A program made the translations under genes and the position numbers. From Enoplolaimus lenunculus (Eukaryota), in NCBI GenBank assembly GCA_030248215.1, contig JASANG010003984.1:1-64000 (forward strand): a stretch of DNA of 64,000 bases, written 5' to 3'. Below the pieces are notes generated by a model. It had not been told where the DNA came from and searched no databases. It saw only the letters and a program-made list of their open reading frames with translations. The number at the start of each line of letters is the position of its first letter. Position 1 is the first letter of the stretch. Below are positions 1 to 57,263 of this stretch, in pieces.

Positions 1-457
1 AGTAATTTGGTGACGACAATTTCAAATTCCGGTTCCAGTTCCGGTTCCTGCAAAGAAATGCAATACCTGTTACTGTTCCGGCAAAACTTCCAGTTCCTGG
101 TGGAACCCTGGCAATTAGAGTTCTTTTGTCCTATGTCTGCGATGCAAATGCCCATAATGGAATGTGTGTAGCAAAATTGTAATAAACCGAAAAGAAGATT
201 TAATATCTATACCGTTATAAGCACGCATTTAGAGACACTAGACAAGATGGCAATACGTAGGATGCTTACCGGATTTGTACGCATAACACCAGAGCTAGAT
301 TGAAAAAATTAAACTTATATTTGTATAAGAAAGCGTAGAGAGCAAAAACATAAAGTGTTTTGCTAAGTTCAACATTTATCAACAGTCTATGCACAGTTTG
401 TTTATGTCTGAATTCACTTTTCAACTGCTGCAAGCCAATTTGTAACTAACTTTTTAG

Positions 458-1698
458 GGGAAGCCCAAACGAATCTTTTAGAACAGCAAATTAAAGAACG
501 TGAGAAGAAAAAGAAGCAAGACACACTAACTCTTGAACAAACGAAAGAGCAGGTGCACAGCTTTGTTACATTTCTAAGAATGTGTGGGTGCATGAATGGT
601 ATATATAATGTAGTTTAGAGTTGTGTACCAATTCTCGTCAGAAGAAAGAAAAAGGCCGGTGTGATGTTGTTTGTCTCGTATGGAACCAGATAACCATAAA
701 GATCATGCTTCACAGAAGCGTGCAGGACAGAACCAACTTTGTTATTATAGAAATAAATATTATTGGTCCAACTTGGGCTGGGTTACTTGACCGCTTCTTA
801 GGGTTGGCTGCAACGCCAATGTATAGGAAATGTCTCAAATACTAAGCGTGACTTTAAGGCCTATCGAAGGCTTAAAGCTTACTATGCTATTTTTTATCTG
901 TTTAATATATTTTGTGGCTGCTACACATTTTTTGTTACTTCAAAAAGCAAATTTGTAAACTTATTACAGATACTAAAGCTCGAAAAGCAGCTGGAGAAGC
1001 TGAAACAGGACAAACACGAACTCTTTGCTGAGTTGAAGAAAGTTCTACACAAGGACGAGCAGAAAATTCATGTATCGTCGTCGACTGCAAACAATTCTCC
1101 TGCTAGCGCTAGCGTGTTGTATTCCCCAGTGGCGGCTCCTGTGCCGGTACATAGAGTGGTATGTTGTTTTTTTTATTTTTGGACAATACGTTGTAGACAA
1201 AAGCAAAAATACAGGTAAGTAGGAAAAAATATTCAGTGTCGTGGTCGTATCAAAAAGAGTGGTAATTTATTCATACTTGAATACCGTTTTTCTGAATAAT
1301 AATGATATTTCGTTTATTTATAGACAAGCAATGTAATGTATAAGTCATTTTAGACTAAATTTGTAGCAGACGTTTAACGGAGAGCGATGTTTAGCTAGGT
1401 TTGAGGTTCTGCTTTATCACGCGCATCAATATTTTGGATCTGATAAATCAATATGTTAGAAGTAATAGGTAACATTTAGTATTCGGCGAGTTTGAAGCAT
1501 TGCTACAATGTAACTAAGCATGTATGTAACTATGACAGTACAAATTCTGCATCAATTCAGCAACAATGTTTTGGTTTTATCTAGATGTCAGATGGTCCAG
1601 AACCGGTTCCACGAAAGCGAATGCGCGAAAACAGTGGCCATACTATGCAAACCTCCCCGCATCAGGTTCCTTCCAGAGGTAGGCAGAACTTCATGTAA
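458..1698 (+). CDS. GPS2: G protein pathway suppressor 2 (NCoR/HDAC3 complex subunit), 3' part; exons 458-552, 970-1158, 1585-1698; 5' exons lie before the window
   Basis: Spliced translation ..EKKKKQDTLTLEQTKEQ|ILKLEKQLEKLKQDKHELFAELKKVLHKDEQK.. matches the GPS2 coiled coil (vertebrate SLEETKEQILKLEEKL..EKHQLFLQLKKVLHEEEK). GT-AG borders are in phase. The last exon and stop (TAA 1696-1698) are less certain. Confidence 0.85.
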
Positions 1699-3198: not shown

Positions 3199-3618
3199 GC
3201 TGTATTGACCCGAATAATAGGAGGGGACTGATACTTATTTGGCCTGTGCAAATGGTGCATTCCTTCTTATTCGGTTACGGACTGTTAATGTTTATTTTTA
3301 ACGCACCCTTCGTTACTGATATATATTCGATATTGCAACTATCCGTTGAATTAAACCTTTATTTGTCACGTATGCAAACTTTGAGCAGTAATGCAAGCTT
3401 ACAAGAATGTATTTTCAAAACTAAGTATGTTTAAAAGTTTCGAACTCAACTGTGTTTGATGTTGGAGTCATTTACCTATGCGCTGCAATTTAGGATAGTT
3501 AACTTTTATGGACTCTAATTAGGGTTTACGGACTTTATCCGCTTACGGACTCATAGGGATACGGACTCCTATTGATTGGGACTCAAAATGGGGGCCCTCT
3601 GTTGGAGTCACTACAGTA
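3199..3618. mobile_element. MITE family with TACTGT..TGACCCGAATAAG ends; copies at 4851-5237, ~6490-6592, ~48505-48625, 53678-54489
   Basis: Shared TIRs and internal sequence (cccttcgttactgatat, cttacggactc). Confidence 0.75.
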
Positions 3619-3842
3619 GTACACTGTAAAAATGGGAAGTCAAATTGACTCTCTCGGAAATAGGCTTTTCCTGACTACACAAACTGAGTCAAATTTGACT
3701 CCGCCTGAGTAAAGTTCGACTCACTGAGCGATTCAATGAATCGAATTTGACTCTGGCGGAGTCGAATTTTGACTCAGTTTGTGTAGTCCGGAAAAGCATG
3801 TTTCCGAGAAAGTCAATTTGACTCCCCATTTTTTACAGTGTA
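3619..3842. mobile_element. Near-perfect palindromic MITE; relatives at ~52678-52800 and ~23032-23291
   Basis: TACACTGTAAAAATGGGAAGTCAAATTGACT...AGTCAATTTGACTCCCCATTTTTTACAGTGTA long inverted repeats. Confidence 0.8.
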
Positions 3843-4074
3843 CTTTAATTCAACAAAATTCGTAGATTTCGCTAGCGTTGTGCTGCTAACAATCGAATTG
3901 CACGCAAACCAAAAATTTGCCAAACAACACACGCTGAGCGCTGTGTAACAAATCAATGGCTTTGTAGTTTTTTACAAGTTGCAGCTGATATTAAAAGTTT
4001 ACTTACTGACACGCCTTTTTAAAACAATTTAACTTTATTCATAAATCAATTATTCGGCAAAGACTATAGTTGAT

Positions 4075-4743
4075 ATGAGTTCAAAACAACTGCTTGACAC
4101 TCGCAACGAGCTTGCTGACTTAGTCAAACGCCGCGCTGAAATTGCCGAAACGCTTGCTGCATTAGAACGTCAAATTTACGCGTTCGAAGGATCGTATCTT
4201 GAAGACACTCAAGAGTATGGCAACGTCATCCGCGGCTGGGATCGATATCTAACGGCAACAGTAGCACCGCCTTCTAGCAGCAGCAGCACTCGCTCTGGGA
4301 ATCTGTCACAAACGAGCAAATTGACTGGATCCAGTAGTGGAGCAGGGGCTGGCACAAGTGGAGGTGGCGCAGCATCGAGTGCCAACGACAAGAAGAAATC
4401 GGTGACAAGAGTACGCGATTCAGAACGATTGTTTTCGAATTCGTCAGTGACGTCTGCAGCGGCAGTTCGTGGAATGATTGGGCCTTCGACATCTGGGGGA
4501 GGAGATAGAGGGACGGTTGGTGGGAGCGGACCGCCAGGCAGCGCGCCGCCATTACGGGACGGGACCAATTTGGTGTCGGCTGGAGGTGAGAAGGATAGCA
4601 AGGCAGTGGTGGGTCATGGAGGCTTGGGGAATAAACAGCATAAGCATTTATTGCCCACCGGGTCGAGTAGAGGCGCGTCGCCTGCGGGTGATGCGATTGC
4701 GTTGGGACCCCCAGTATCGAAGAAAAGGAAGCCGAAAAATTGA
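4075..4743 (+). CDS. MEAF6: Chromatin modification-related protein MEAF6/Eaf6 (NuA4/MYST HAT subunit), single coding exon, 222 aa
   Basis: [52 protein letters not shown] and [11 protein letters not shown] are the conserved Eaf6 motifs. Basic C-terminal KKRKPK. Confidence 0.95.
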
Positions 4744-6900: not shown

Positions 6901-9900
6901 GGGAAAAAATTTTCAGTTTTATCTTTAAACTTTGAATTATATAGACGAAGTTTCTTCTCGCTTTTAGAGACCAATACTCACTTGTCCAAATCTTTTTGCT
7001 GCAAGGAGGGATCGTGAAATTGGCCAATGTTTTCTTTAAAGGCCGTCCCATTTTCCCGGGACAGAAATATACCAGGAGTACCCGTCCCATTTTCCCGGGA
7101 CAGCAATGTACCAGGAGTACATTCAAAAAATATAATTGGGACAGCGGGACAGATAAGACAGTGGGACAGATGAGACAGTGGGGCAGATGGAACAGCTGGG
7201 ACAAATGGGACAAACGGGACAGATGGGACAGTATATATCCTACGTAAATATATCTGCCTGTGCATATGTAAACAGGAACGCAAGTGTGCACTCTGGGTAT
7301 ATTTGTGTCCCGGCAAATTGGGACGGCCTTTATAGTAACATGGGCCGTGAAATTGATTATATACTAAGGGGCACATCTATGTTATTGCCTCATATATATT
7401 TATATCTATGTATATCGTGTTAAAACTATCATGTTTCTATTTCGTTTTCTAGATTCATCTTTATTTGCTTAAATGCCAGTCTAAAATGAGATAAATTCAG
7501 TGTATGTAGAGTTGAATATTTTTGTTTATTATATCGCTGTCTAGACAGAAATTAAATTTTATATACTGCTGTATGTTCTACGATTTAGACAGTATAACAT
7601 AGCAGTTAAAGGCCGGTAACCAGGAATTGCTAGTATCGAGAGAGAGTATAGCGACACGTAGAAGATGCAAGAAAATTTTTTTCTAACATAAGGCTAGATC
7701 CTGGCACACGTCGTTCAGCCCTAAGCCCTAAATGTTGGGTAAGTGTGTACCAGTTGAAGATACTATACTTGTAATATTGTGAAAAAACTGGAAGTGGGAG
7801 GTTCAGATGTTCAGAGTGGGAAGGATTAAGATGAAAGCTAAAATCAGCTAATGCCGCATACCATGTCTCTACGCTTAAAACTTCCCACGGTCGTGGTCGA
7901 CCAGTTGAACCTTTTAAATGTGCCGTTTATTTTTCAGATTGACAGCTGGCCCTTAGCCAGCTCACCTTGCTAAAAAGCGAAAAAAATTTTCATGAGCTCA
8001 TAAAAGCGGTTTTCGTTGACTTACAAGCAAGGTTGATCATTTTCTAGGGGGCACAAAACATTTTTCCAGACGGCAGAGCTCACTGCCTGCCTCCCCTCCC
8101 TCCCGTGGCTACGGGCCCGATTGGCAGCCATCGCTCTGGATACTTATAATTTGAAAATTTTTATTGTTTTAGGTCAAATTTCTTTTATGTCGATGCTTAC
8201 CTCATTCTCAAATCAGACAGCATTTGCCATCTTTAATTTGAAATCACTAAAAGTCAGACATTCTTAAAATCAATTTCTAGCTTTTAGCTATGTAATTATG
8301 GTCGATTAGGTTGGATTTTATTTCGGGTCGACTCGCTTTAAATTTGTGTCGTCTTCTAAAGATCCAAAAAGTTCACTTTGTATCCAGTAAAGTTATAGTG
8401 TGTTTTTCTTGACTGTAGAAATTTTTAAAGCGGATATATTCGCTAATCACTGCCCTTGCATACACCCCTACGTTAGGTTATTTTCAAAATGCTAATTTTG
8501 TCGCACCATTATTTTCCATGTCTGCTAATTAGGCAGAGTAATAGCAAGTCTAAGGGGGCTATGCCCGAGCTTGTTATTGAAATGCTTGAACTTAAAGCGC
8601 CCGCGTACCATCTGCCATCCTTTGTATCACTAGGAGGTAAAACATAATTTGGGCACTCAGCCAAATATTCAATATTTACAATAGGGGGGGGTGTAATTAT
8701 TGATAAAGCTCCCTAAAGACATATGTACATTCTTTTATGTCGAGACGTCTGTCTGATGACCTCGTATGTCCACTTTTACTCACTCTTGCTCTCTTAAGAC
8801 TGACCATTATCATATTTATAGTAGTGTCTGAGAATGTTTATAGTAGCCGTTGGTCACTATCTGTTCGAGTTGTATTAGTTGTAGTAGTAGCAGTAAATAG
8901 GAGTTGTGTTGAATTTTAAAATTTTGAATTGAAATTTTGAAATTTATTATCTATGGTGATGCACGAGTTGTTATTTTGACAATAGTACGTATAACATTTT
9001 GGCCAATGTAGGTATACATCAGGGCCTTAATAATAGTAAAAGTATATTCGTAAACCCAAGCGTAAGGATAAGCCTATACCTAGCCAATGTCTAAGCAAAA
9101 AAATAAGTCTAAAGCTTAAGCTTACTCGGCCAATGTTACTTTTAGGGCCGTAACAGTAGATTAAGTGTATTCCTAAGCCAAAGCCAAAGCGTTGCAAAAG
9201 CGTATTCGTAAGCCTAAGCCTAAACATAAGCCTAAACAAAAAAATGTAGTCTAGAATGTAAGCCTACATTTTTACAGACCCTCCTGCAACCGGGACGGCC
9301 CTAAAAGTAACATGGGCCGCTATAGGAGTCCCAGAGAAAAACAATCCGCCCCTGATCTATACATAAGCCAAATTTTTGTCAAATAGTTTTGTAGAGGTTT
9401 GTTACTGATACTCTGGGAGGCTATTATGTTTCGGAAATGTTATCTCTAAGTACGTAAGCCTGTAAACTTGTAAAAGCCACTAACTTCAGCTAATGATATG
9501 GTTTCACACAATCAGCTGCGTACAGCTTCATAGTTGAGTTTGCCAAATGGACCGTCGTTATAAGCACAGGAACAGTGGGACACATCGCTCCCGTTTCGAA
9601 ACTGGCGGGATCGTCCCAGGACTTTTGATGCTGGGAAGTGGTCCTATTATAATTATGTACAATGTGGTTTTGCATCATTTGATGTGCTCCAACTCTGAAT
9701 AATGTTTGGTTCATATAGCTATTAGCTTCGTTCAAGATGTGTTTATCTCAATTCACGTTCAAAATTTTAGCTGTGACTATGCTCTTTTGAGCATGTGAGT
9801 TAAAAATAAGCCTGGCAGAACTCAAATCGTAGCACGGAACTAACTCAGCGTGATGCGGTAGGTGCTCGGACAACCTATCTCGTGTGTCACACCGACAAAA

Positions 9901-29320: not shown

Positions 29321-30488
29321 TTCAACCTTCAGTGTACCAACTCTGTCTCTCTCTTTCTCTCTCTTTAAATTTACACAGCAAGCAATCGAGTCAACAAACC
29401 TGCGCTACCGTAGACACATAGCACCAGTCTGTGAGACCCGTAAAATGCTTGTGGCATAACCCGAGGTGTCCCCATACGTGCGCGCACACATACACACATG
29501 GGTACCAAGAACCGAGCCAGAAACGATCAGGCACCACAAACAATGACGAGTATGGCAAATAACCAGAACGAACTCGGCGCTGGCCAGCTTGGCGAATAAT
29601 CTATTTATAGCTTTCATCGTCGGCTAAAAGTGTGTGTACGCAGAGTTTAATGCTAAATAAAGCCTATCGGATAGCTAAGGTTTGGCTTTTGGTCGTTGGA
29701 AGTGACGAACGCATGAGTGCAGTTGTAGCGAGTTATTTTTGTGATATAACCTTGGTATGGAGACTAAGTGTCACTTTTGGTTCCAGCGGTTAGTTGAAAA
29801 AATCGGCAATTTACCGAATACTGTTTCAATGGTTTAACATCCCTAGTAAGCGCTTCATCCGATCCGAGAAGTTTCCATTGTGAGACACTAATTTTATACA
29901 TTTGTATAGTCTCTTATCCTGTGTAGGTTAATTTTCTGTTACCCTAAAACCTTTAATTGTCCAAAATTTCAATGGCACGGTCCCTGTAGATCTCTGGCTC
30001 CAGTCCTTCTCGAGACATGCACTCCGCCTTTAGATTAGGGCAAACTGTCTTAAATTCTTGCTTCTTCAACTATTCTATAACATCAGACATGATTAGGCTC
30101 TGATGATACGTGCCAGACTCGTTGTTTGAAGTAGGAATTTAAAATTTGAAAACTAAACCACTGCTTTAGAGTGGACATTTCTAAATACGTGTTGCCAAGG
30201 TTTCCAATGGAGAGTATGTTTGTATGTGTGTGTAAATGGTCTGTTCAGTACTAGTGGACCATGGGACTTTATGGTTTACTAGTTAGGAGCGTGATTTGGT
30301 AGCCACTTTGGATTGGTTACTCGTATATAGGCTTCGTGTGTGCCCGAGTTGTGGTCAAACAAAATTCTAAACTCCAGTCAAACTTTATTACATATATTTG
30401 TTGTGTGTGTATTCTTGCAGCATCGCCTGCCGATTTTCAATTGCGTTTGCCAATAAAAGGCATATTTGAGAGCCGGAAGAACTCCATA

Positions 30489-31924: not shown

Positions 31925-32126
31925 TGAGGTAGGTTTAAAATAACATGCATCTAAATAAAAGTAGATCATCCTATTTATACAATAAAATGCTTGCTATGAC
32001 CTCATCCAATGCTATTCTTCCTCCTGGGTGGAATTACAAACCATATTTTTCAATCGCATAGCAAATAAATTTTCCAGCAAAACCATTACTAAATATTCGA
32101 TGGCTGTTTTAATTTCATTTGCTTAA
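31925..32126 (+). ncRNA. let-7-seed precursor candidate (5p TGAGGTAGGTTTAAAATAACAT, ~155-nt loop)
   Basis: Canonical let-7 start TGAGGTAG 1.26 kb before miR-100. Best partner is TGTTTTAATTTCATTTGCTT (~32105-32124), two 8-bp G:U-rich helices. Confidence 0.4.
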
Positions 32127-33166: not shown

Positions 33167-33358
33167 GTGCACGATGTTCAAGGTTAACCCGTAGATCCGA
33201 ACTTGTGTTGAGCAATTTGTGTTAAAATATTGCTAAAATGCAGTTTGCCACGTTGTTGTTTGCAAATGTGCAATTAATTGCACCTTTTGTAGGCAGCAAA
33301 TGTTACTGCATATAATAGTTAACGCAAGTCTGGCTACGGGTATATCTCATCGGTGCAT
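33167..33358 (+). ncRNA. mir-100: miR-100 precursor with ~115-nt loop; mature 5p 33186-33207, star arm ~33323-33344
   Basis: AACCCGTAGATCCGAACTTGTG is identical to canonical miR-100. It pairs with CGCAAGTCTGGCTACGGGT. Lower stem GTGCACGATG/CATCGGTGCAT. Confidence 0.88.
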
Positions 33359-34699: not shown

Positions 34700-34849
34700 T
34701 TAACCCTTTCTCACATGAATATTTCCTATTTCCCATGAGACCTACTTTTATGCTAGGATTCGAACTCCAGTGACCGGAGTTGGAGGCGTATACCATCACC
34801 ACTCCGCTGTAGGAGCTTGACGCTCGAGCCCGAGGGGGCTCTCACGTCT
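34700..34849 (-). mobile_element. tRNA-derived repeat inserted in a GGCC-end MITE (host ~34687-34980)
   Basis: Reverse complement of 6751-6900, flanked by the split halves of the MITE. Confidence 0.7.
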
Positions 34850-37544: not shown

Positions 37545-40500
37545 ATGACCGACAGCGATTTGTTTGAGCAACAAAAGGCTCTTAAACGGGGTCTACTCAA
37601 TCGGTTGTTAGATGCAGTGAAACAGGTTTGTTATTAATTTATCTTAGGTTGCAGTATAGATTAGTTTTGTGTAATAAGTATCCATTCAGTTAGAGTAGTT
37701 GTGGAATTTCGTGTTAAATGAGCAATTACAAATTTGAACTGTTTTTTATATCGCTCCAGTGTTTTGTATCCACTGAAGTTTACTGGAAATGAACGATCAC
37801 TTATTCAATTACTCGTATTAGGCGTCAGATGTCCACGGACAGCGAGCAATAGATTTCATGCTACCCATTGGCACATTATTGTTTAACCTTATTGCTAAAA
37901 GTCACAACCTTTGCGATAAATTTGTTTGGAAATTTTTTATAAATACGTCAGAAGGAAGCAAGGTTCTTACAGGCTGTTGAATATTTTTAAATTTTCATAC
38001 TAGATGTGAAATTTGTTTTTTATATTTATATATAAATCCGAATTTATTTAATTTCAGTGTCAGTCAAGATTTGGAGGCAAACGGGAATTAGCTACTGATT
38101 GCTATACGCAGTGAGTTTATTACATACACACAGCTCAAGTTAGATTAACATTCAGTAATGATATGTAGCATATATATACCTGGAATATGCACAGTTTTAT
38201 CGGCGGTCCTTTGATTTTGGAGCAAAATCAGGGGAACGGGATTATTGCTAAAATTTGAAATGTTCGCGCTCAGCTGGACCTGCTGATTTCACAAGTATAC
38301 GGATGATCAATAATGACACCCACTTTTTGAGTATTAAACTTGGTAGGCGTCAGGGTCAGGGCCGGAGCAAACACCCCATATTCCCCATTTGCAGGGGGTT
38401 CACCAGGGATGGGTGGTATCGGTTACAAACCGAGACCGGCCAAGAAATATATCGGTCTGAGTCAATTGTTGGTCATCACCGAAAATAAATTTTCAAAATA
38501 AACTATTTCTAATGTTTTTTTGTAAGCGTGTTTTTATAGTTGTTTGTATTTTCATAGCTTTGCTCTGTTTTTCAAAATATGTGCTCGTAATTATTGCGTA
38601 ACTATAAAATGTTATAATTTCACAGAAAAATTTTATTCATCAGCGACAACTTACTCAACAATACAGTTATATACATTTGCTGAATCCTCGACTTCTGGTC
38701 TCGGTTCCAAACCAGCGAGACTGGAAAAAGCGAGACCGAAAGTGAGAACGAGACAGAGACCGAGACCTGCAAAATACCGATACTTGCCAAGACCGAGAAC
38801 GAGACCGAGCGAGATCGAGATTCGGCCTCCAATCCATACGGATTGAAACAAAACCCTACGAATTTATGAATTACGTCTGGCTTCTCGATCGCTTCGCTCG
38901 AGAGTTTTTGACTCTGTTCTACCTTTCCGTGATTTTAAATAGCTTTGGACACTACATAGGCGTTACAAGAACCCTCAGGTTGCTAATTGCCAACAAGTTT
39001 TCTCGCTCGCTACACTCGCTGGGTTACAACTTAAGTTAATATAACTCTCATGAAACGAAATTGTCAAGAACCGTAATAAAGATAAAGAAAGTTTTGAGTG
39101 AGACGTGTCGTGTGCTGTCTTCTTTGGTTGGAGCATATGAAGATTGTATAAAGTTTTACGTAAAATATCAGTTGTTTAGCTACTTTAAAAGAAAACGCCA
39201 AAAAAAGTTTCGCTCTGCGCGCGAAATTTGATTCATTTTAAAGGTGGTTTCACTTTCTAGATCCATCATTTTGCAACTTTTGTGTGTAATTGTTTTTAAA
39301 GGGTGTCCTCACGGCTATCAAACACGTGCGTGAGCTCAGAAAATTTTAGATGGCGCATGGATAAATTCGGCATCCCCCTCTGTACTGCGGGCCTCCGCTT
39401 TGGAGTTTGGGGGCCCATTCTGTATGCTCCGGCACTAATAGGCGTTTTTGACCACCACTTTTCAAACACAAAAAACTCGACTGGTTTATTAGTACCCAAA
39501 ACATCTGACAAGCTCATTATCCGATATCAACCTGTGTATCACAGCTCACGTAGGAACTTATGCATGCCTGTTGGCTTCGAATAATCATATGGAAATTCAA
39601 ATGTGTACCTGATTAATTTCTATTAAGGTGTAGTCAAAATTTTATAGGGTTTCCTGTCTTCTTGCTCAACTGGAAGCAGTGTTTTACCATGGTTTGAAGC
39701 ATAATCAAACTGTACTTAATACGCTCAAGTAAGTAAATATGGGGATAATGTTGCGTTGAGCTGAATGGACATGTATATACGTTATACGTTTTGGAAAGCT
39801 GTATTTTCGACAATTAGCAAAAGTTTTTGAGCTGTTTGCAGGAGCGGATTTATTGTAACTGTGTGCGGATACCAAAATTTTTGCCGATGCCATTGTAATT
39901 TTAATATATCTTGCTTAGAGAACCGAAGACTTAACACTATGAACGCGAAAACGCACTGATATACGCCATCAAGTTAAATGGATAGCATTGTTACTCACTG
40001 CTAAGAGCAAAAACTATCGGCAAAAAATCAATATTTTGCAGTAAACGTTACGATGTCGATTAATTGGCACATCCCTAATTGTAATAATGGAAGCATTGTT
40101 TAACATTGAGTGTTTCAGACAAGTCACTGAAAAACTTACAAATATTAGTTTGGATCACTTGGAACTGGAAACAGGTTAGTAGCGATTTCATTAGGTTAAA
40201 ACTGCAACATAATTACGGCAGCCTTAATGTTAAGTGAAAGTAGGTAGCAGAGGTTTTTAAAGTTACGCTCTAAGAATGTTGAACTTTTTTTGTTGGTTCC
40301 AAGCAAAGCTAAACTGAGACTTGCAAACCGAGGCTGCAGCTAAAAGTCTCGGTCTCGGTTATTTTTGAGCGGTAACCGAGAGCGGTTCTACCTACATGCA
40401 GCAATGAACTACATTGGTATGTTGGGTTTTGAGTAATTTTGTTCAATTTTATATTTCCTTCTGGTTATCGTTTTTAACTAAAGTTAGATTTATTTTTGAT

Positions 40501-43500
40501 CAGTCTAAGAAGTGATTTATTAGGCATTAAAACAGTTTTTAAAATTAGTTGTTTGTTTGATTTTGGACGTTTGGTTTTGTCGTGCAAACGTCCTGAGACG
40601 AAAAACCAAGAGTTATTGAGACCGTGGCTTTCATCACTTCATTGGCGCTAAGTTTAGTTTTAAAACCATGATGCATTATGTGCTTCTGTTTGTAAATCTG
40701 ATGTCTTCCTGATAAAAAAGGGCTAGGGGCATGATATAAAACGTGAATAACGTGATCATGATATGTATACATTAACAATTCCAATGTTGGGTGTTTGCGG
40801 GAAGTTGTGTATTTTTAGTATTATGGCATTTTGTTCGTTATCATTTGAGCGACCTTGAACGCTCGCGCTACAGCAATCTCAAACACATTACAACTGACTC
40901 AGGACGGGGGCGAGCATGGATACGTGCTGCGCTTAACGAGAAAACACTGTCGAGATACGTCGAATCAATGTTGGGCGATACCCATACGCTAGAGTAAGAA
41001 CCAGCGTTTTATTTTTATTTTATACCAAGGCAGGCATAATTGGCGACTGTGACTTACGATAAATTTTCAAGCACCAATTAAAAAAAATTCGACAAGAGAA
41101 ATGTTATGCTTACTGTCAAATTCAAATTCTTTGGAAGGGATATAAAGGCAAGTTGAAAAGGATCCAGTCATATGCTACGCTTGCGAAATTAGGTGCTGAA
41201 GAATGTTTGTCAGTACTTAAGTCTACGATGAGTTAATCAACCAATTTATAATTTTACAGGATTTATTATGAAAGCTGGGCATTTTTACGTGATGAAGAAT
41301 TAAGCGCCACTTTACCACAACTGACGGCAGGTAAGTAATTTCGGCATTGAAATTTAGTGTATAAAGTTTTTTTGCTAAACGTAGATATTTTTGGATCTGC
41401 AGAGGTGCCAAAAATTAGTGGAAGCACAACAATTTGCCACTCTTGTTTTATTTATACAATACTAGTTTTTTAGGAACAGTGATATAAAACGAGCTTATTG
41501 TTTAGGCCTTCAATCGATTTTGTTTGCAATTGCAATTGATAACGCAGAGCTGAATACTGCGAAGTGTGTCATTGAACAGACTTCTGAAATGTTAATTGAA
41601 GCCAAACGAGCACCGGCACCCATTATAAATGTTCAAAGCGGACGCGGAGGTATGTATATTGTTAAGAGACCTGCCGTTGACAAAAGGTTGTACTGACTAA
41701 TGGCTGATAAGAGAATTCACCTGTGTATTTTAGATTTGGTGTTTTAATTTACCAAAATTGTTGGCAATATAAACGTCATTCTTCGAAATTTTTCTTCTAG
41801 CTTTCCGGTAATGAATGGAGGGTGGTGGAATTTCACCAGTGCTCAGCCATGAGCACCATTGCCTCCATTTCGTCCCGCAATACATATTTTTGACAAATGA
41901 GATGTCAGCCTTTTGGCTGTAATAATACTATTTATAGTTGTGACTGGCATCACCGGAAAAAATTTGTCGCGGTGGTAGTTTTATCACTTAATAATGCTTA
42001 CATTTAAAATTTTAGCACGACGATACAATCACAGAAAGAAGAAATCAACACTTGTTAACGTGGTTTCATTTGACAATGCGAGGAGGTATACTATTGCTAA
42101 ATGCTAGTTTAACCGAAATTTTTGACTTACTAGAGTTTGGGGATTTCAAAATTTATGCAAATTTCAAATGCTAAAAGATACAGTTGTATAGTAATTAAGT
42201 ATTGAATGGTTTTACTTAAGCGATATTGTGTTATGTATAACCAGTCGTAGTGGGACTACATGTATTGAGGGAAGCTCGAACACACGTAAGCAGTTAAGCT
42301 AATATGCAAATTAGTTATTAGCTAACTATTCATTTATTGGTTTTAGAGGTTTGTAAACAATTTATTGAGATGCCTCGCACTCAAAAACCCTTCATTAACT
42401 CTAATAATTTGAGAAAGAATTTTAAAAGCCATTATGTAGGCTTATCAATTTAGCAAATATTTGCAAATTAGCTATTAGCTAACTATTCGATAATCGGTTT
42501 TGAAGCTTTGTAGACTATTTATTTAGATTCCTCGCGCCCAAAAAACCATTATTGCTGAAATTAGATTGCTTGTAACCCTAATAATTAGTGATATATTGCA
42601 AAAAAGCCTAATTTAGGCTCATCAATTGTGTTATATGCATATTATCTGTTAGCTAACTACTCAGTTATCGGTTTCAGACGTTTGTAAACAGTTTATTCTG
42701 ATTCCTCGCACCTAACAACATTCAGTACACCATAATAATTAGTGAAATAATTTAAAAAGTCCTAGTTATGTCTTGTCAATTAAGCAAATATGCAAATTAG
42801 CTATTAGCTAACTATTCGATACTCGATTTTGAAGGTTTGTAGACTATTTATTCAGATTCCTAAAACCCAAAAAGCCATTAGTGCGGAAATTAGATTGCTT
42901 GTAACCCTAATAATTAGTGAAATATTGCAAAAATGCCTAATTTAAGCTCATCAATTATGTTCTATGCAAATTATCTATTAGCTAACTACTCAATTATCGG
43001 TTTTAGACGTTTGTAAATAATTTATTATGATTCCTCGCACCCCAAAAACCTTCAGTACATCATAATAATTATCGAAATATTTATTCAAATTTCTCGCACC
43101 TAAAAACCCGTTAGTGCTGAAATTATATTGCTTTTAACCTTAACAATTAGTGAAATAATGTAGAAAGTCCTAATTTAGGCTTAATTAATTTTGCAAATTA
43201 GCCTGTAGCTAATAAACGGCTTAAAATTTTACAACCCAAATGCGAGGTTAACACCCCATGATAATTGGCTTTCAAACAAAAAAGTTTATCAAAACCGAGT
43301 CAGCCGTTCCTGAGAATTTTTTCGGACGGACGGACGGACATCCACTTTTCGACCCCAGAGTACAAAACATAGAACATTGAGTGAAACTTCGAGTTTTGCT
43401 CGGAGTTTCGCTTCGCTCAATAAGGCTATAAATAATAACTTTAAAAGGATATAACGCACTACAAAGTGAAAATCTTATAAAGACAACAAGGCGCATCTTT

Positions 43501-46500
43501 TTGGAGATAGTTTTACATTTATATAGGGGCATGTTTTCATATTTTATAACAAATTTTAGGTTCTCGGAAAGCGATGGTCATATGAAGGTTATATCTTCGG
43601 GTGGCAAGAAACAAACGTACAAATCAAGTACAGCTTCTAGTGGTCAAGCAATCAATTCAGTGCTTCAAGCGTGGAATCAAGGAGCGGCCAACGATTCAAA
43701 TGGTTCAAAAACGAGTAATAGCCGGGCGGTGCCGTCACATATCAACCGAGTAGACTCGTATTCTTCAGCACCTGCAGAAGCTAATCCTGGTAGCAAATCG
43801 GTACAGCAAACGCCGTTGATGTCGTTATCGTCTGTTGATGGTAATATGATAGTGTAGATTGGGTTAAGGGGGAGGGGTAAAGATGGCTGGTTGGGGCAAG
43901 GGGAGTTTTTGAGGTGGCTGGATAAAATGGAGCAGCCGTAGCTGTGAAAAGGTTTATTGAACTGATGGTTAGCTACGTTTGAAGTTTGAAAGTCTTTCTT
44001 ATTACAGTGCAAGCGCTATCTTAGTGCAATACGGCTAGCGGAAAAGTTACCTGGGACATGGAGCTGTCTCGAAGAATTTATTTACTTACGTAGAGCTGTT
44101 AAATGTTCAAAGGGCTGTTGTGATAATGATTAGCTGCATTGGTTGTTTGCAAAAATGTCTAATGCAGTAAAAGCGACACAAGTGCAGTGTTTTTTCTGCA
44201 GGAAAAAGTTCGTGGGAGAAAATATAAAATGCACTGGTATTTGCTGTACCCTCCTATTAAGCGTTAAAGATTATTTTTACAGATGAAAACGTTAGATTTT
44301 GATGTATGCGTTTGCGATTCTATTGAAACCCAGGCCTATTTGGTACTAGGTCTTTTAACTTTTGAGCCATAGTCAAATTTTGTAAAATTTTGCGTGCTGT
44401 ATATGGCAGATGTTTGTCAACACTCTACCCGTATGAGAAATTCATTAATAATAAATGCAGGACAGTAGGTGGTTTGTTTGAAAATAGGTGCTATAGACTT
44501 CTGAAAATACGGTCTCTGATATCAAAATTTTTTCAGACGTACTGGCATTTGTGGATACCGTTGGCGAAGTTGAAGAAGAAGACGCCCGGTCGGTATTTTG
44601 TGATACTTCTACTCCCTCGCATAGCAGTTGTCGGTCCCCGTCCGAAGCAAGCGCTGCGTTGCCAGGCGGTTTACATTCCGGAGCGATTGTTGATCAGTTG
44701 TCTGTGACACCATCCGGCGATAGTTCTCGCAGCGGACAGATTTCGCCACAAATTCAATCCAGCGGAGAATATCAGGCGGTGAAAAGTGAAAAGTAAATAG
44801 TATTTTGGAAGTAAATGCATTTTGAATGTTTATTTTGACTTCGTTATTGTCGAGTAATTATTTTTCAGTTTGAAAGAATAATAGTCTTGGAAAAGCGTTG
44901 ATTTGTTTTTTATTTATGTGTTTCAACAAATTATTGGAAATTAAGCAAGCAATGTGGCTTAATTTCGTTTTTGATTACTTCTTGATCGTTTTTCGCTTTT
45001 TTAGTTTGTCAAAATCGCAACATACGAATTTAGATTCGGGTTTGTTTCTTAACGGTGAAACATTTACACCGATTCTGTCTTACAGTGACGGGATTGGCGA
45101 CAGCGCAAGTGCCTTACACGTAATTGGTCGACCGGAACATTCCGAGCACGGTAAAATATCTTTGTATGTCCTAAAGGCAAGAGGTAGCTAGTTTAAAATT
45201 GGTGTATTCAGGCTCTCGGATTAGTTTAAGTATGAATAGCTTTTCAGCGCTGAATTGTTTTTGGGGATTGTGGATTTATTTTAAATATTTTCAGGCGTCG
45301 TTGAAGCAAATGGTTTTAGTTCAAGTAATTCCGGAGTAGGTATGTGAGAACAGGACAAAGACTAGTGTGTTGATAAACGGTTGAAATCTTTTAAACTGGC
45401 GCATTGTAAAGTGGTATAGTGGTAAGATTGTGTGAACATTCAGTTTATTTAGTCCAAGTTATAGTAGTTTAATTAAACCTCATCTGACGCTATGCTGCGC
45501 CAATAATAATAATATGGGGAGTTAAATTTTGATTCTCAGCCTGATTTCGCGCAGTGGTTATTTTTTGGCAAAAGCGAAACTGTATTTATAGTGAGACGAA
45601 GCTTTCATCAAACAAATTCTCTGAAAAATTATACATCGTAATATGGTAGTATAGTGTGTAGCATTGCTAATTTGCATTATTTTTTGTTTTAGATATTCCA
45701 ACGCTGAATGATTTGCTGCAAACTGATAACACATTACGTACAGATTGTGTTGGTCAACCAAATGGTGGAGACTCTTATGCTCAAAGGTGAGTTAATGTTT
45801 TAATATCAACATCACACATTTGGTCGCAATTCTGCAGTGAGTTAGTTGACTACACAATATGGGGCTGCAAGATTGTCGCAAATTATTCGACCTTTGAATT
45901 TAAGTGTTTTAAATGCCGTCATGAGTTTACTTTTTGGCAGTCTCATGTTGTACCTTTTTAAGGCACTTGTGTGCATTCAACCGATAAAAGTTCAATTACG
46001 CATGATGACTGGATTAATGATGTATGCTGAGGGTTTGGCATATGTTTAGCCTAAACTGAGCTTAAATTTATGAAAATAATAAACTGAAATGTGGGAAACT
46101 TTAAGGGAAATCAAACAAGTTGCCCGTTGGCCAGTCATTTCGACGATTTCATATGAAAAATTTTTCGCATTATTCGTGTTGCTTGAATAAATTATTACTG
46201 TTTTCAGTGGAAGTGATTACTTGAGCGGCGCAGAGGATTGCGCAGGTGACAACTGTTCAAATCCGGACAGCAATTCGGCTGAATTTGTGGCAAGTTTACG
46301 GCAACAGCTAGCGGCGGTCAAACAACAAAGCACTGTGACAGTTTCAAAGCTTGAAGCTCAGTTGGACTCGGCTCTGCAGTAAGAATTGTTTTGGTGGTGG
46401 TCATGGATTAAAAACAAGGGAGAAGGGGTCGGTCTCTTTGAGCAAGTGACGTCTGTGGAAGTTGAAAAAAGAAATTGAATTTGCGTTGAGTAGAGTTTTT

Positions 46501-49500
46501 GATCGAATGGAAAAAATAGCAAAAATCGTTTATATCGTAGGTGTTAGAATTGAATTTTTTTCAAATAAAGATCAGTTTGAAAATGCAAATTTAACAAAAT
46601 TGAATTGTTGTACAGCTCACGTATATTAAGTTTATTTATGGTAGAAGTGTTTGATATGAATATGATATTTTAGTTGTTTCACGCTAGCAATATTTCGAAA
46701 TTATTCGGTTTCTAACGGTTATAGACAGAAATCACTCTTCTTTACTGTGTACCTTATATTTTCAGAGAAAACGAAGTATTGAAAGGCCAAATCAAAAGTT
46801 ATATATCAGCAGTACAATTGCTTAAATCTCGTGGTGCTCAGAACTTTTCAGGTTGGTTGACTATAATTTACATCGGATCGGGGTTGAAAAACAGCGTAGC
46901 AAGCGTTTTTGGTAGGTAATTAATTTAATGAAATTGCTAGAAAAGATTTCAGGTGTTTTGTAGGGATATAGGCAAGCAAAAAGTAAAATATGGATGCAAC
47001 TCGGTATATTTTAGCAATCAAGCGGAATTCAGCAGCCAAGACCAAAAGCAGATCTCCTGGTGTGTTAACATTTGTCAGTTATAAAAAAATTGAAGTACAT
47101 GCGTAGATTTTAGCAGGTGCCCATGTTATTGATGTGTAATAGTCGAGTAACTGAAGCGTAACGCACTAAATTGCAATATTAACAGTTTTTACAGTTCAAA
47201 ACTAAATATTTAAAATATGTGTTTAAGAATCACCGGAAGTTAATGAACTGGTATCCTGTTCGACATCATTCGAAAATCCAGATGATCCAGCGAGCGTATA
47301 CGAACAGAAATTAATTCAGGTGTGTGGTTCCGTTATTTATAATTAAGCATTACACAGAGTTGGAAATTTATTTTTTATGAACAGCTGTATACGGTATTGA
47401 ATTAAGTTATGCACCGTTTATGACATTTTTTGCCCCCACGACAAATACTGTAAGGTAAAATTAGTCGCTAGCAATTTTGAAAATCACAACTGGTCAACCG
47501 TACCCGATAGCAAAACGTTAAGACGCACAATTTGGCTGCTAATTGGAAATGTTGATAATTTTTTGATTATCCGGGAAAGAACTTAGCATGATAACTGGAT
47601 TTTAATAGTGAGCTTATACGTGTTTTTCGGCCTTCTAATATGCTTGTATATTAATGTGGTTTTGTGTTTTCTGCTCGTTTAGGTCGCTCAAATGCACGGT
47701 GAACTGATGGAATTCAATGAACGCCTACAGTTGGATCTGAACAAACGATCTCGTCTTGTGTCCAAATTACGAAACGAACTTATTGAGTTACGTGGTCCGG
47801 TAAGAAATTTTTATATTTTATTGTCATAACTGTTTGATAGTTTATTATTTTGATATAGCAGTAATAAATGCCTTTTTGGTTCATAGCCTCGATTGCTTGT
47901 GGTACCTGGTACAAAGCGCTTGTTGAAATAAAACAGCTTTAATTGAATTTTGAGAAAATTATTTTAACAAGGCGCAGATTTATCTTTGTAATGTTTCTGG
48001 AAGCTTTCTGATAAATCAGTGCGAAAACCGTTTTCAAGTTTGTTTCAATTAGACTGTTTTCCCGGAACCGTAATTTGGAATTTTTATGTTGCATACGAAA
48101 ATTAAAATGCGATGATAGGTTTCGAGATTTTGGTTTGGAAAACATTGTTTCAGGTGGCCGAAGATTTCATTATCGATATTGATGAACCTTCATTAAGGTG
48201 AGAGTAGCGTTTCAATATTTTCTTTTCTTGCTACTTTCTAGATGAAGCATAGTGTAAATTTTATAGCTAGCCACGACACCAATTGTTGCAATGGCTAGTC
48301 AATGTAGTAAGGACGCATGATGGTTTATCTGCTGGCAAATCAAAACGATTCTCACTTACTCCGAAATATTTTTGTTGATTGTGCGATGCCTATTGAACTT
48401 TTTTCTGGGTTTACTAAAGTTTATGCCGGTTGTCTGAGTGTCTGTTACATCTGTGAGCAGTCTAGGCCTTTCTTCTGTTTTGGTCTCTTTTATAGTTCCA
48501 ATTAGGACTTATGGACTCTATACACTAACGGACTCTAATTGCAGATATAGACTCCAACTGATTGAGACTTAGAATGGGGTCTTCCTGCTGTTATCACCGA
48601 CCCTTTTGTTCGGGTTACTACAGTATCCATTTAGGTGGGTATTTTTAGCCAATCAAGAGCTGTAGCTGTCGTCCATACAATTTGTGTATTGGCTTGATGT
48701 TTGCTGATATGGCTAAATTAATGCAGCGGCTACGATTACCATATGATTGCCTAATCTAAAAGTAGCTACTTATCGTTGTCTTATTGCTAAGCACGTTGTG
48801 AGGTATGAAATATTATGTTTTTATGTAGCAGATTTTTTATTAGTTTCAGTGGATCTACTAATAATGATCGTCCCAGTATCAACATTTGGGTACCTACTGT
48901 GTTTTTGACTGGAAAAGGTGCTGATGTTCACCATGTTTATCAGGTGAGGCTAACATTTGCAACGTATCTAAGATTTATCTTATCTATTTTGTGCGGAGTT
49001 TGGCCGAAAGATGTGCTACATTTGACGATGTTTTAGGTTTTGCCTTTTTGAGTTCTAACTTTGAGAAGTAGTGACTTTAAGTTTTGAGATTCAATTCACG
49101 GTATCAATATCAGGTTACCTATAATATTAATAAAACAGAAATTCCTCAGCAGTGTTTATGACAAGCATCTAAATTGTTTCAAGAGGTAGATTAAGTTCTG
49201 ACCCGTTTAATATTATTTCTAATACTGAAAAAAGATTTTTGGTTAAGTTTTGTAGAAGTTAGTGTCACGATTGAGATTTTATTATTTTAGATTTATATTC
49301 GGTTACGTGACACTGAATGGAATGTTTATCGACGTTATTCTGATGTTCATCGATTGCACGTGGAACTGAAGAAACGTGATCGGTCAACTGCATCTTTTCG
49401 AATGCCACCAAAGAAAAATATTGGTCATAAGGTAAAAACAGTTAATGTGCTAAAACAAAAATAATTACAATGTTTCGAATGTTTAAAAGTTTAAACTAAA

Positions 49501-54888: not shown

Positions 54889-56499
54889 GCTTGTACCTAA
54901 GCCTTAACTAAGCAAAAATAGTCAAAAGCGTAAGCATACTCTTACTAATCTGAATTTTATGTAACCTTTTGCTTTTATTTAACCAGCATTAACACTAAAC
55001 AGTAGAAATACCGTAAGCATAGTGTACAATTGAAAGCAACACATTCGGCAACATACAATTGCAATCTAATATTTCTAATCTGTGCATTAGCACCAAAACT
55101 TGATATTGTAATATAAATTTTTCGTTCAACTTAAGCAAACTTGTTTATCAGTAATTTCTGTGTTACTTCTTGTAGACAGCGGCTCACACCCATATCGAGA
55201 TCTCAGTTCCCCATAGAAAAATTCTGTCTACCCACAGCATTTCAAGTTTGAAAGGTTTTTGAAATCAATTTATGTCCCTCCTAAAGTTTAACGGCCAATG
55301 TTACTTTTAGGGGCGTAACAGTAGATTAAGCGTATTCCTAAACCTAAACTTAAGCGTAAGCGTTTCAAAAATGTGTTCCTAAGCCTGTGTATGCCTAAGC
55401 AAAAAATGTTATCTAGAATCTAAACATACTCTTTAGAATCTAAACGTACTCTTTAGAATCTAAACGTACTCTTTTACAGAACCACCAAAACCTGGACGCC
55501 CCTTTACAGTAACATGGGCCAAAAGCACTGTAATTTATAGTCGCGCATCAATCCATATGAATGCAAAAGGCTTTAGTGCAATTTGAATAAACAATCACCG
55601 CTATGCATAAAGAAATATCATGAATATCATTCAATCATACGCTTATCTCAGTCAATATTTCACTGAACAAAATGCCAAAATCATGGAAACGGTTGCACTA
55701 ATGACTCCGCGCCTGGGTTGAACTGAGATGCCTGTTTTCAATGCAACCAATGCCGCGTCCCACTATCGAAATCCACATCCGTATACGTATCTCCTCGATA
55801 AACACCGAGTTCAACCACTATTTGCCCCTGAACAAGTAACCAAATATCTCGTATCACCTGAAAATGCAATCTTCTCATGGCCACCAACAACTGAAACAGG
55901 TACTTTCTCCATGAAAAGTGTGCTTTCTTTAAACCAGAGCAACCGTAACCAGAAGCTGAAAATATATATATTTTATCACAATTTATCAGACAAACATCCA
56001 TAGCCTAAAAACAGAATTCTCATCCGCAAGTACCAAGGCGATCCAAAATCTACAAAATACCTTAACCCCATTCTGGCACGCCATTATTTCAATGGTCCAT
56101 ACTATTTTTATGCGTGCCCCGTTTCTCGTCAGGACCGCAATAGAATAGGCTTAAATTTTGACTTATTTTTTTACGCTTAAGCTTAGTATTAGCTTTAGAC
56201 GTATAACCTACATCGCATCCTAAACAATGAGTACCTTTTTCAAACCTGTGACCAGCATAACCTGATTTCTAAAACTAAAATTCACTTACGCATTAGCATC
56301 ATAACCACAACCTGATACCGTGTGGTCAGTCGCCTAATATATAACCGTTCAAACCAACTTCGTTATCTAAAAATATTACTAAAATTAACCTTGAAATACT
56401 TATAAAAATTGAAACTTTTATCAATTAAGACTTTTTAAATTAATAATTTGGGTTTTTTTTCAAAATTAAATATGTAAGCTATTGTTGACGACGCCCAAA

Positions 56500-56708
56500 T
56501 GTCACTGCCTGCGATCCTAAACATGTGGTTTATTCGAAGTGTTTTTGCCTCGATCGGAGCAACACACCCACATTTCGGGACTCGAATGGACGCACCATTT
56601 TTTATCATTCAACACCATTATTTACCATACAACACCATTATTCAAAGCATTGCGTAAACACGTCGGTTCGCTTTGATTACCACAAGTTTAGGTCTCAGGG
56701 ACATGACA
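56500..56708 (-). ncRNA. mir-125: miR-125 precursor with ~151-nt loop; mature 5p 56701-56680, star arm ~56528-56504
   Basis: Minus strand TCCCTGAGACCTAAACTTGTGG is 19/22 to miR-125b with the seed intact. It pairs with CCACATGTTTAGGATCGCAGGCA. Basal TGTCA/TGACA. Confidence 0.85.
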
Positions 56709-56970
56709 GTGGACTAAAATATCATTGCAATCAAATTTCAATTACACTTCAATCAAATGACCCCAATTAACTCAAGTGAGAACGCCGCTTTTTGTTTTTC
56801 CCATCGCACTCCGTATGTTCCAAAGACTCGTTCTGCATTTACACCAATGCTACCAACAAACTGAAATTCATATTTTAAATCTATGCTTTAGCTTGGAACC
56901 TAATTCCAACTCGAAACTCATATTAAACTCAATATCATTCCAGTTAACCTCTAGAGCATATTCCTAAACT

Positions 56971-57263
56971 GTACGCCTAAACTGCCCCAGAGTACGCCTA
57001 AACTGCCCCAGAGTACGCCTAAACTGCCCCAGAGGACGCATAAACTGCCCCAGAGTACGCATAAACTGCCCCAGAGTACGCATAAACTGCCCCAGAGTAC
57101 GCCTAAACTGCCCCAGAGTACGCCTAAACTGCCCCAGAGTACGCCTAAACTGCCCCAGAGGACGCATAAACTGCCCCAGAGTACGCATAAACTGCCCCAG
57201 AGTACGCATAAACTGCCCCAGAGTACGCATAAACTGCCCCAGAGCACGCCTAAACTGCCCCAG
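56971..57263. repeat. 21-bp minisatellite, ~14 copies
   Basis: (GAGTACGC(A/C)TAAACTGCCCCA)n. Confidence 0.95.

Follow-up and report, generated by a model that had tools for sequence, protein, structure and literature searches.

Organisation of the miR-125 locus

The window (the whole 64,000 nucleotide stretch of DNA that was analysed) encoded a putative miR-125 hairpin on its minus strand. miR-125 is an ancient developmental-timing microRNA, represented in C. elegans by lin-4. The predicted mature 5p arm (22 nt) lay between 56,701 and 56,680 (−), with a 5′ U at 56,701, and the seed CCCUGAG was intact at positions 2–8 of the arm (56,700–56,694). Nineteen of the 22 bases were identical to the commonest Mir-10-P3 mature sequence in the MirGeneDB table; the differences were at positions 12, 13 and 22. 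Seed and mature similarity place 56,701–56,680 (−) in the MIR-10 family. This was the sole match to the miR-125 pattern in the window, and no match was found in 100 shuffled sequences.

The predicted star (3p) arm of 22–23 nt, delimited by pair probabilities, extended from 56,526 to 56,505 or 56,504 (−) and began with ACA, as do many Mir-10-P3 stars. An earlier note on this DNA, made from the sequence, had placed the partner of the 5p arm at 56,528–56,506 (−) and had described pairing over almost the whole of that arm; the partner was located at these positions, and 18 of the 22 bases of the 5p arm paired with 56,528–56,508 with a probability of at least 0.97. In the predicted fold the unpaired positions of the 5p arm were 1, 2, 7 and 17, and one A was bulged on the 3p arm. 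Canonical microRNAs have at least 16 pairs between arms of 20–26 nt, and the 18 pairs found here were accompanied by predicted arm ends that allow 2-nt overhangs.

The basal stem described by the earlier note (TGTCA at 56,708–56,704 against TGACA at 56,504–56,500) was present, and it extended further than had been proposed. Its 5′ side occupied 56,714–56,702 (positions −13 to −1) and its 3′ side 56,505–56,493, with pair probabilities of 0.91–1.0 at −2 to −7 and at −9 to −13. This gave 6 + 5 pairs, or 11 bp, between −2 and −13, and the flank from −14 to −16 was unpaired with a probability of 0.92–0.94. The predicted geometry is that of a canonical lower stem, with ~11 bp below the Drosha cut and open flanks. 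Folding of 56,490–56,720 (−), which the earlier note had proposed as a check, gave −72 kcal/mol (z −3.98), and none of 200 shuffles equalled it.

A CNNC motif (CAAC, 56,487–56,484, −) was found 17–18 nt beyond the predicted 3′ Drosha cut. The miR-100 locus described below also had a CNNC at +17/18; the chance of a CNNC in a given 3-nt window is 0.105 at each locus. The basal UG, CmR and bulged GWG motifs, as defined in the available part of PMC11701709, were absent from the miR-125 hairpin, where UGUG occurred solely inside the mature arm. The absence of basal UG and CmR weakens a reading of canonical processing.

Size and structure of the loop

The region that Dicer would excise was 153 nt in length (56,679–56,527, −) and, in the predicted fold, was multibranched directly above the duplex. 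The earlier note had given the loop as ~151 nt, which corresponds to 56,679–56,529, counted as far as the first paired CC; allowing for a 2-nt Dicer overhang gives 153 nt. Its central claim, a miR-125 with a loop of about this length on the minus strand, was borne out by the sequence, the geometry and the controls below. With 2-nt overhangs the predicted precursor was 197–198 nt. Under this model the arms would be held ~150 bases apart, compared to the usual ~16, such that a precursor of ~200 bases would be cut.

By itself, the loop folded at −32.3 kcal/mol (z −0.25) and 127 of 300 shuffles were as good, though 56% of its bases were paired in the best fold. The ensemble diversity was 38 for miR-125 compared to 14 for miR-100, and the fold of the miR-125 loop was ill-defined. 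In the predicted fold a branch junction followed pair 23, with 4–5 unpaired bases on the 3′ side. The loop also contained a 20-nt tandem repeat of 2.5 copies (56,593–56,642; 90% matches, score 79), which filled 50 of the 153 nt. The position of this repeat inside the loop suggests that the loop likely grew in part through tandem duplication. A separate tandem array with a 21-nt unit (56,971–57,263; 14 copies, 96% matches) was present 270 nt upstream of miR-125 on the same strand.

miR-100 and the intervening region

A miR-100 (Mir-10-P2) hairpin was found on the plus strand between 33,168 and 33,357. Its 5p arm (33,186–33,207) was identical to the common Mir-10-P2 mature sequence, and was followed by a 117-nt loop (33,208–33,324) and by a star starting at 33,325. 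The predicted star was short, at about 20 nt, and the predicted precursor was 159 nt. The arm outperformed all of 500 shuffles and the loop was well structured. No resemblance between the loops of miR-125 and miR-100 was seen by eye.

Between the two microRNAs was a spliced gene (39,646–49,461, +) with RUN and PX domains, identified with Pfam in a search that covered 150 of 289 filtered open frames. We take this gene to be SNX29-like from its domain order, and collinear tblastn pieces aligned it to a Plectus RUN protein. miR-100 (33,186, +) and miR-125 (56,701, −) faced each other across this gene at a distance of 23.5 kb. The G+T skew was above zero across the SNX29-like gene and below zero from 54 kb onwards, and this flip near 54 kb fits a separate, convergent minus-strand unit containing miR-125. 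Very high-copy repeats were observed at 52.7–55.4 kb and 58–62 kb; contigs of the DNA runs did not bridge those at 52.7–55.4 kb.

The ancestral cluster arrangement, with miR-125 downstream of let-7 and miR-100 on one strand, which is typical although not required, was absent here. Either an inversion that split the let-7 complex or an error in scaffolding may account for the facing arrangement. Mir-10-P3 in MirGeneDB 3.0 shares with the present locus the seed, the 5p mature sequence, a star starting ACA and linkage to miR-100 on one scaffold, but here miR-125 was on the strand opposite to miR-100, with a protein gene between them, and the window yielded no let-7. The arrangement was also unlike that in Trichinella, where the let-7 cluster is intact (PMC3384580, available part), and unlike that in five other nematodes, where mir-100 is beside let-7 and lin-4 is elsewhere (10.1101/2024.07.19.604269, available part). 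As in the nematode let-7 complexes described in the accessible parts of these sources, a three-gene cluster appears to be coming apart, with miR-125/lin-4 and miR-100 no longer in the same orientation; the difference is that here miR-125 remained near miR-100 yet inverted, a miR-125-like sequence was kept and let-7 was not beside miR-100.

A search of the window for let-7 with a 17-mer, allowing up to 3 mismatches, gave nothing. Five sites in the window carried the let-7 seed only; three were tested for a partner and none had one better than −15 kcal/mol. A let-7 seed with a 5′ U (31,925–31,932, +), 1.26 kb upstream of miR-100, had no partner within ~1 kb and is likely to be a chance occurrence. 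A stretch at 29,428–29,454 (+) resembled the 5p arms of miR-125 and miR-100; it gave the highest-scoring local alignment with miR-125 beyond the miR-125 hairpin itself, and it also holds the miR-100 seed. As a microRNA it was rejected, having no star partner (best −18.1 kcal/mol), and it is perhaps a decayed paralogue or a chance match. Elsewhere in the window, an exon at 412–615 (+) had a weak Pfam match to G_path_suppress (GPS2-like; E 1.3e-5, below the curated cut-off), and the long inverted repeats at 3618–3844 and 7037–7332 are probably non-autonomous DNA transposons.

Chance pairing, strand and assembly

The 36-nt 5′ arm plus lower stem paired with the 300 nt downstream at −41.3 kcal/mol, compared to −19.7 ± 3.0 kcal/mol for shuffled sequences, none of which (0/500) was as good. 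When the 22-mer alone was paired with the same 300 nt, it was equalled in 1 of 500 shuffles. The shuffle test was conditioned on the conserved arm because loose stems were common: there were 438 of at least 25 bp across the two strands (128 kb), and a de novo stem scan could not discriminate. The next-best partner of the 22-mer within 400 nt reached −18.2 kcal/mol compared to −25.1 kcal/mol for the star side, and across the two strands (128 kb) a single unrelated site, at 34,754 (−), bound the bare 22-mer equally well (−25.6 compared to −25.1 kcal/mol). For the arm plus lower stem, the best unrelated genome tile gave −35.9 kcal/mol compared to the −41.3 kcal/mol observed, in a control that was not clean, as a tile edge had split the miR-125 3′ arm (−31.8 kcal/mol). 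Folding the 5p arm with ~70 nt upstream or downstream gave no microRNA-like short hairpin.

The plus strand of the same region also folded (−61 kcal/mol, z −3.76) and the strand was therefore assigned from the mature sequence and the base skew, not from folding. Contigs from all three DNA runs (55,729–57,007, 55,399–56,929 and 55,996–56,997) spanned the hairpin unbroken; these runs belong to one study of at most two samples, possibly the source of the window itself. Among the differences listed, the only one within the hairpin was at 56,605, in the loop, leaving the outer stem unaffected. There were four gaps among the contigs spanning the hairpin.

An Rfam search of the whole window returned 13 weak matches, none of them at miR-125 or miR-100. 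At the miR-125 locus two chance matches to snoRNAs and no MIR-10-family match were obtained, and miR-100, with its perfect arm, was missed too. Standard models have been reported to miss long-loop microRNAs (available parts of PMC12553114 and 10.64898/2026.05.19.726197), and an option for searching long hairpins now exists (10.64898/2026.05.19.726197, available part).

A short-loop miR-125 in another animal

When metagenomes were scanned for exact copies of the mature 21-mer, five contigs (L001–L005) were identified from one other animal, in which miR-125 had a 16-nt loop. The first 21 bases of the 5p arm were identical to this short-loop miR-125, the hairpin of which is at 522–600 on L001, and let-7 was present 816 nt upstream of it in four of the five contigs. 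These hairpins indicate that the same mature variant is used elsewhere with a normal precursor. The five contigs served as a control, not as a relative, and the scan with the exact 21-mer returned no long-loop homologue in a relative. An alignment of the predicted star with that of L001 showed matches at 16 of 25 columns, part of which is forced by pairing.

Lineage of the animal

A MEAF6/Eaf6 open frame (4075–4743, +), identified by Pfam and similarity search, was used as a lineage marker. Across most of its length, no relative exceeded 58% identity to it. In a 33-row tree, the rows of which were chosen from 175 matches to span the named phyla, it grouped with Plectus, Dracunculus, Litomosoides and one further row (99/95 support), and was placed outside these three named nematodes; a 69-row tree agreed. 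The protein is short, the branches are long, the bootstrap was unsettled (0.982) and the named rows included neither an enoplean nor a horsehair worm. The gene itself is contained in a single open frame, in which a Gly/Ser-rich insert splits the NuA4 domain; its neighbour genes are spliced.

The RUN exon of the SNX29-like gene had three matches, and the one that was named was from Plectus. A search with the PX exon, a cluster look-up and a protein atlas yielded no names of lineages. TTAGGC, the nematode telomere unit, occurred 71 times in the window compared to 25.9 expected, and TTAGGG 27 times compared to 23.7 expected. For TTAGGC there were 13 tandem 12-mers; no such tandem was present for TTAGGG or for TTAGG. 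These sequence features indicate that the animal is very probably an early-branching nematode. This placement is weakened by the horsehair worm Gordionus, which has loops of 113–162 nt in the MirGeneDB loop table, taken together with a tree that held no named horsehair-worm row.

Comparison with known long precursors

The MirGeneDB loop table was ordered from long to short, and the first 14,689 of its 19,725 rows were used. Loops of 100 nt were reached in 31 rows, among which 153 nt would rank 15th. The longest Mir-10-P3 loop was 39 nt (Schistosoma; 27 of 170 rows listed) compared to the 153 nt found here, and the longest Mir-10-P2 loop was 59 nt (23 of 126 rows listed) compared to 117 nt for miR-100. 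In nematodes the longest loop was 54 nt (30 of 346 rows listed, from Caenorhabditis and Ascaris only). MirGeneDB 3.0 counts nematodes among the groups whose precursors stay below 80 nt; why they are constrained in this way is, according to that source, an open question.

Giant hairpins are already known from invertebrates, a point that the earlier note had not made. Those described in the available part of PMC12553114 include Daphnia mir-375, let-7 and mir-278, lepidopteran mir-12 and dipteran mir-989, and loops of 234 to >600 nt are reported there with precise duplex small-RNA reads. Like them, miR-125 had a conserved mature and star, a normal lower stem and more than 100 nt between its arms, as well as, in the predicted fold, a branch and a bulge adjoining the dicing site. 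Its predicted Dicer-excised region of 153 nt was far above the vertebrate maximum of 42–55 nt given in that text (PMC12553114). It differed in family, since the 10 families for which the available part of that survey, confined to arthropods, names loops of >100 nt do not include MIR-10 (PMC12553114). It also differed in structure: the extensions of the giant hairpins are described there as being as base-paired as normal hairpins, whereas the miR-125 loop was no more stable than shuffles and branched at once. The loop of miR-100 (z −3.4, 0/300 shuffles) was predicted to be base-paired in the manner of the giant hairpins. The MIR-10 family is new among them, and the phylum is probably new too.

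Fly mir-989, with a 99-nt loop, requires Drosha, Pasha and Dicer-1 as well as a bulge close to where Dicer cuts; an unpaired loop abolished its processing (PMC12553114, available part). As the miR-125 loop is weakly structured, this result weakens the reading of ordinary processing. [quoted passage not shown] The corresponding stems were 13 and 23 nt at miR-125 and ~18 and at least 25 nt at miR-100, and are compatible with the C. elegans or the human rule.

Long precursors that affect several conserved microRNAs of one genome have been described in Seison nebaliae (~75–175 nt, mean 117; PMC12256650, available part), which is a model for genome-wide precursor lengthening. The long precursors of Seison, flatworms and sponges belong to other phyla, and two loci were found here. 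Within the part of the literature that was searched, neither a miR-125/lin-4 with a long loop nor long precursors from any early-branching nematode turned up.

Proposed maturation and alternative explanations

This locus very likely holds a miR-125 gene that is functional and has a giant loop. On the strength of the sequence features, we consider it likely that the arms of this gene, 153 nt apart, would be processed by the ordinary Drosha–Dicer route from a 197–198-nt precursor, in what is likely an early-branching nematode. The hairpin would be made from its own minus-strand transcript, convergent with the SNX29-like gene. Drosha would use the single-strand junction at −13 as the reference from which it measures, cutting at 56,701 and at 56,505 or 56,504. 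Pasha/DGCR8 would dock 23 bp above the cut, on the branch junction, which would replace the usual small loop. Dicer would then measure ~22 nt from the free end and discard the 153-nt loop; if it measures in this way, loop length need not matter. The 5′-U arm would be loaded and would repress targets via its seed, probably in developmental timing, the role for which the miR-125 family is known.

An unlikely alternative is that this miR-125 is decaying or poorly processed: repeat slippage would have swelled the loop, the Microprocessor would act on it inefficiently and another copy would supply miR-125. This would agree with a loop that is no more structured than chance and contains a tandem repeat, with the three changes in the mature arm, with the departure of the locus from the let-7 cluster and with the poor processing of long hairpins in fly and human cells (PMC12553114, available part). 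However, the seed, duplex, lower stem and CNNC have all stayed intact despite no flanking similarity being seen to a homologue, and two of the three mature changes recur in the short-loop miR-125 of another animal. miR-100, with its perfect mature arm, is stretched as well.

It is very unlikely that the locus is real and matures non-canonically, through a siRNA-type pathway or by trimming of the loop before dicing. The stem is only ~34 bp, is imperfect and has canonical Drosha geometry, and the miR-125 loop contains no long perfect duplex, although long hairpins can feed the siRNA pathway in flies (PMC12553114, available part) and the C. elegans Microprocessor measures unlike the human one (PMC9976908, available part).

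Slightly less probable still is that an intron makes up the greater part of the loop and that the hairpin in the RNA is of normal size. Donor-like sites were present at 56,680 (GTG|GTAATC) and 56,625 (ATG|GTAAAT), and splicing within let-7/miR-125 primary transcripts has been reported (10.1101/2024.12.01.626237, available part). The three AG dinucleotides of the loop, however, occur as AAG, GAG and GAG, none of them a pyrimidine-AG acceptor, and the first good acceptor (TTTAG, 56,518) is inside the star, so its use would destroy the hairpin. In the loop of miR-100 acceptors are present, but the sole donors are GTG. Splicing between the donor-like site at 56,680 and the acceptor-like site at 56,518 (−) would delete the hairpin, and is a possible off-switch.

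An assembly error in the long loop, or chance pairing, is highly improbable and has largely been refuted: loose stems abound, but contigs from three separate assemblies run across the hairpin, no shuffle matched the arm-conditioned pairing and miR-100 shows the same pattern.

Implications

The earlier note had regarded the locus as an independent second case which makes the long loop look like a feature of the lineage rather than an accident. The independence did not hold in full, as miR-125 and miR-100 are paralogues of MIR-10 that derive from one ancestral cluster. The lineage feature itself is plausible: both conserved microRNAs found in the window have predicted loops of more than 100 nt, compared to 31 of 19,725 MirGeneDB genes, and against this background of 0.16% an accident is unlikely; the two are paralogues from one genome.

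We put forward only tentatively, as a possibility more doubtful than probable, that an early-branching nematode lineage lengthened its precursors genome-wide and kept the CNNC that was lost in C. elegans, with a Microprocessor and a Dicer that accept branched, weakly structured loops of ~150 nt. If this is true, nematodes would not be a length-constrained phylum, and standard annotation would fail to see many of this animal's microRNAs. The miR-125 described here, inverted but still linked, would then represent an intermediate stage in the fragmentation of the let-7 complex. That Rfam missed both loci illustrates how deeply conserved microRNAs escape standard models. A likely nematode with predicted precursors of 198 nt for miR-125 and 159 nt for miR-100 would provide a counter-example in the phylum of the best genetic model.
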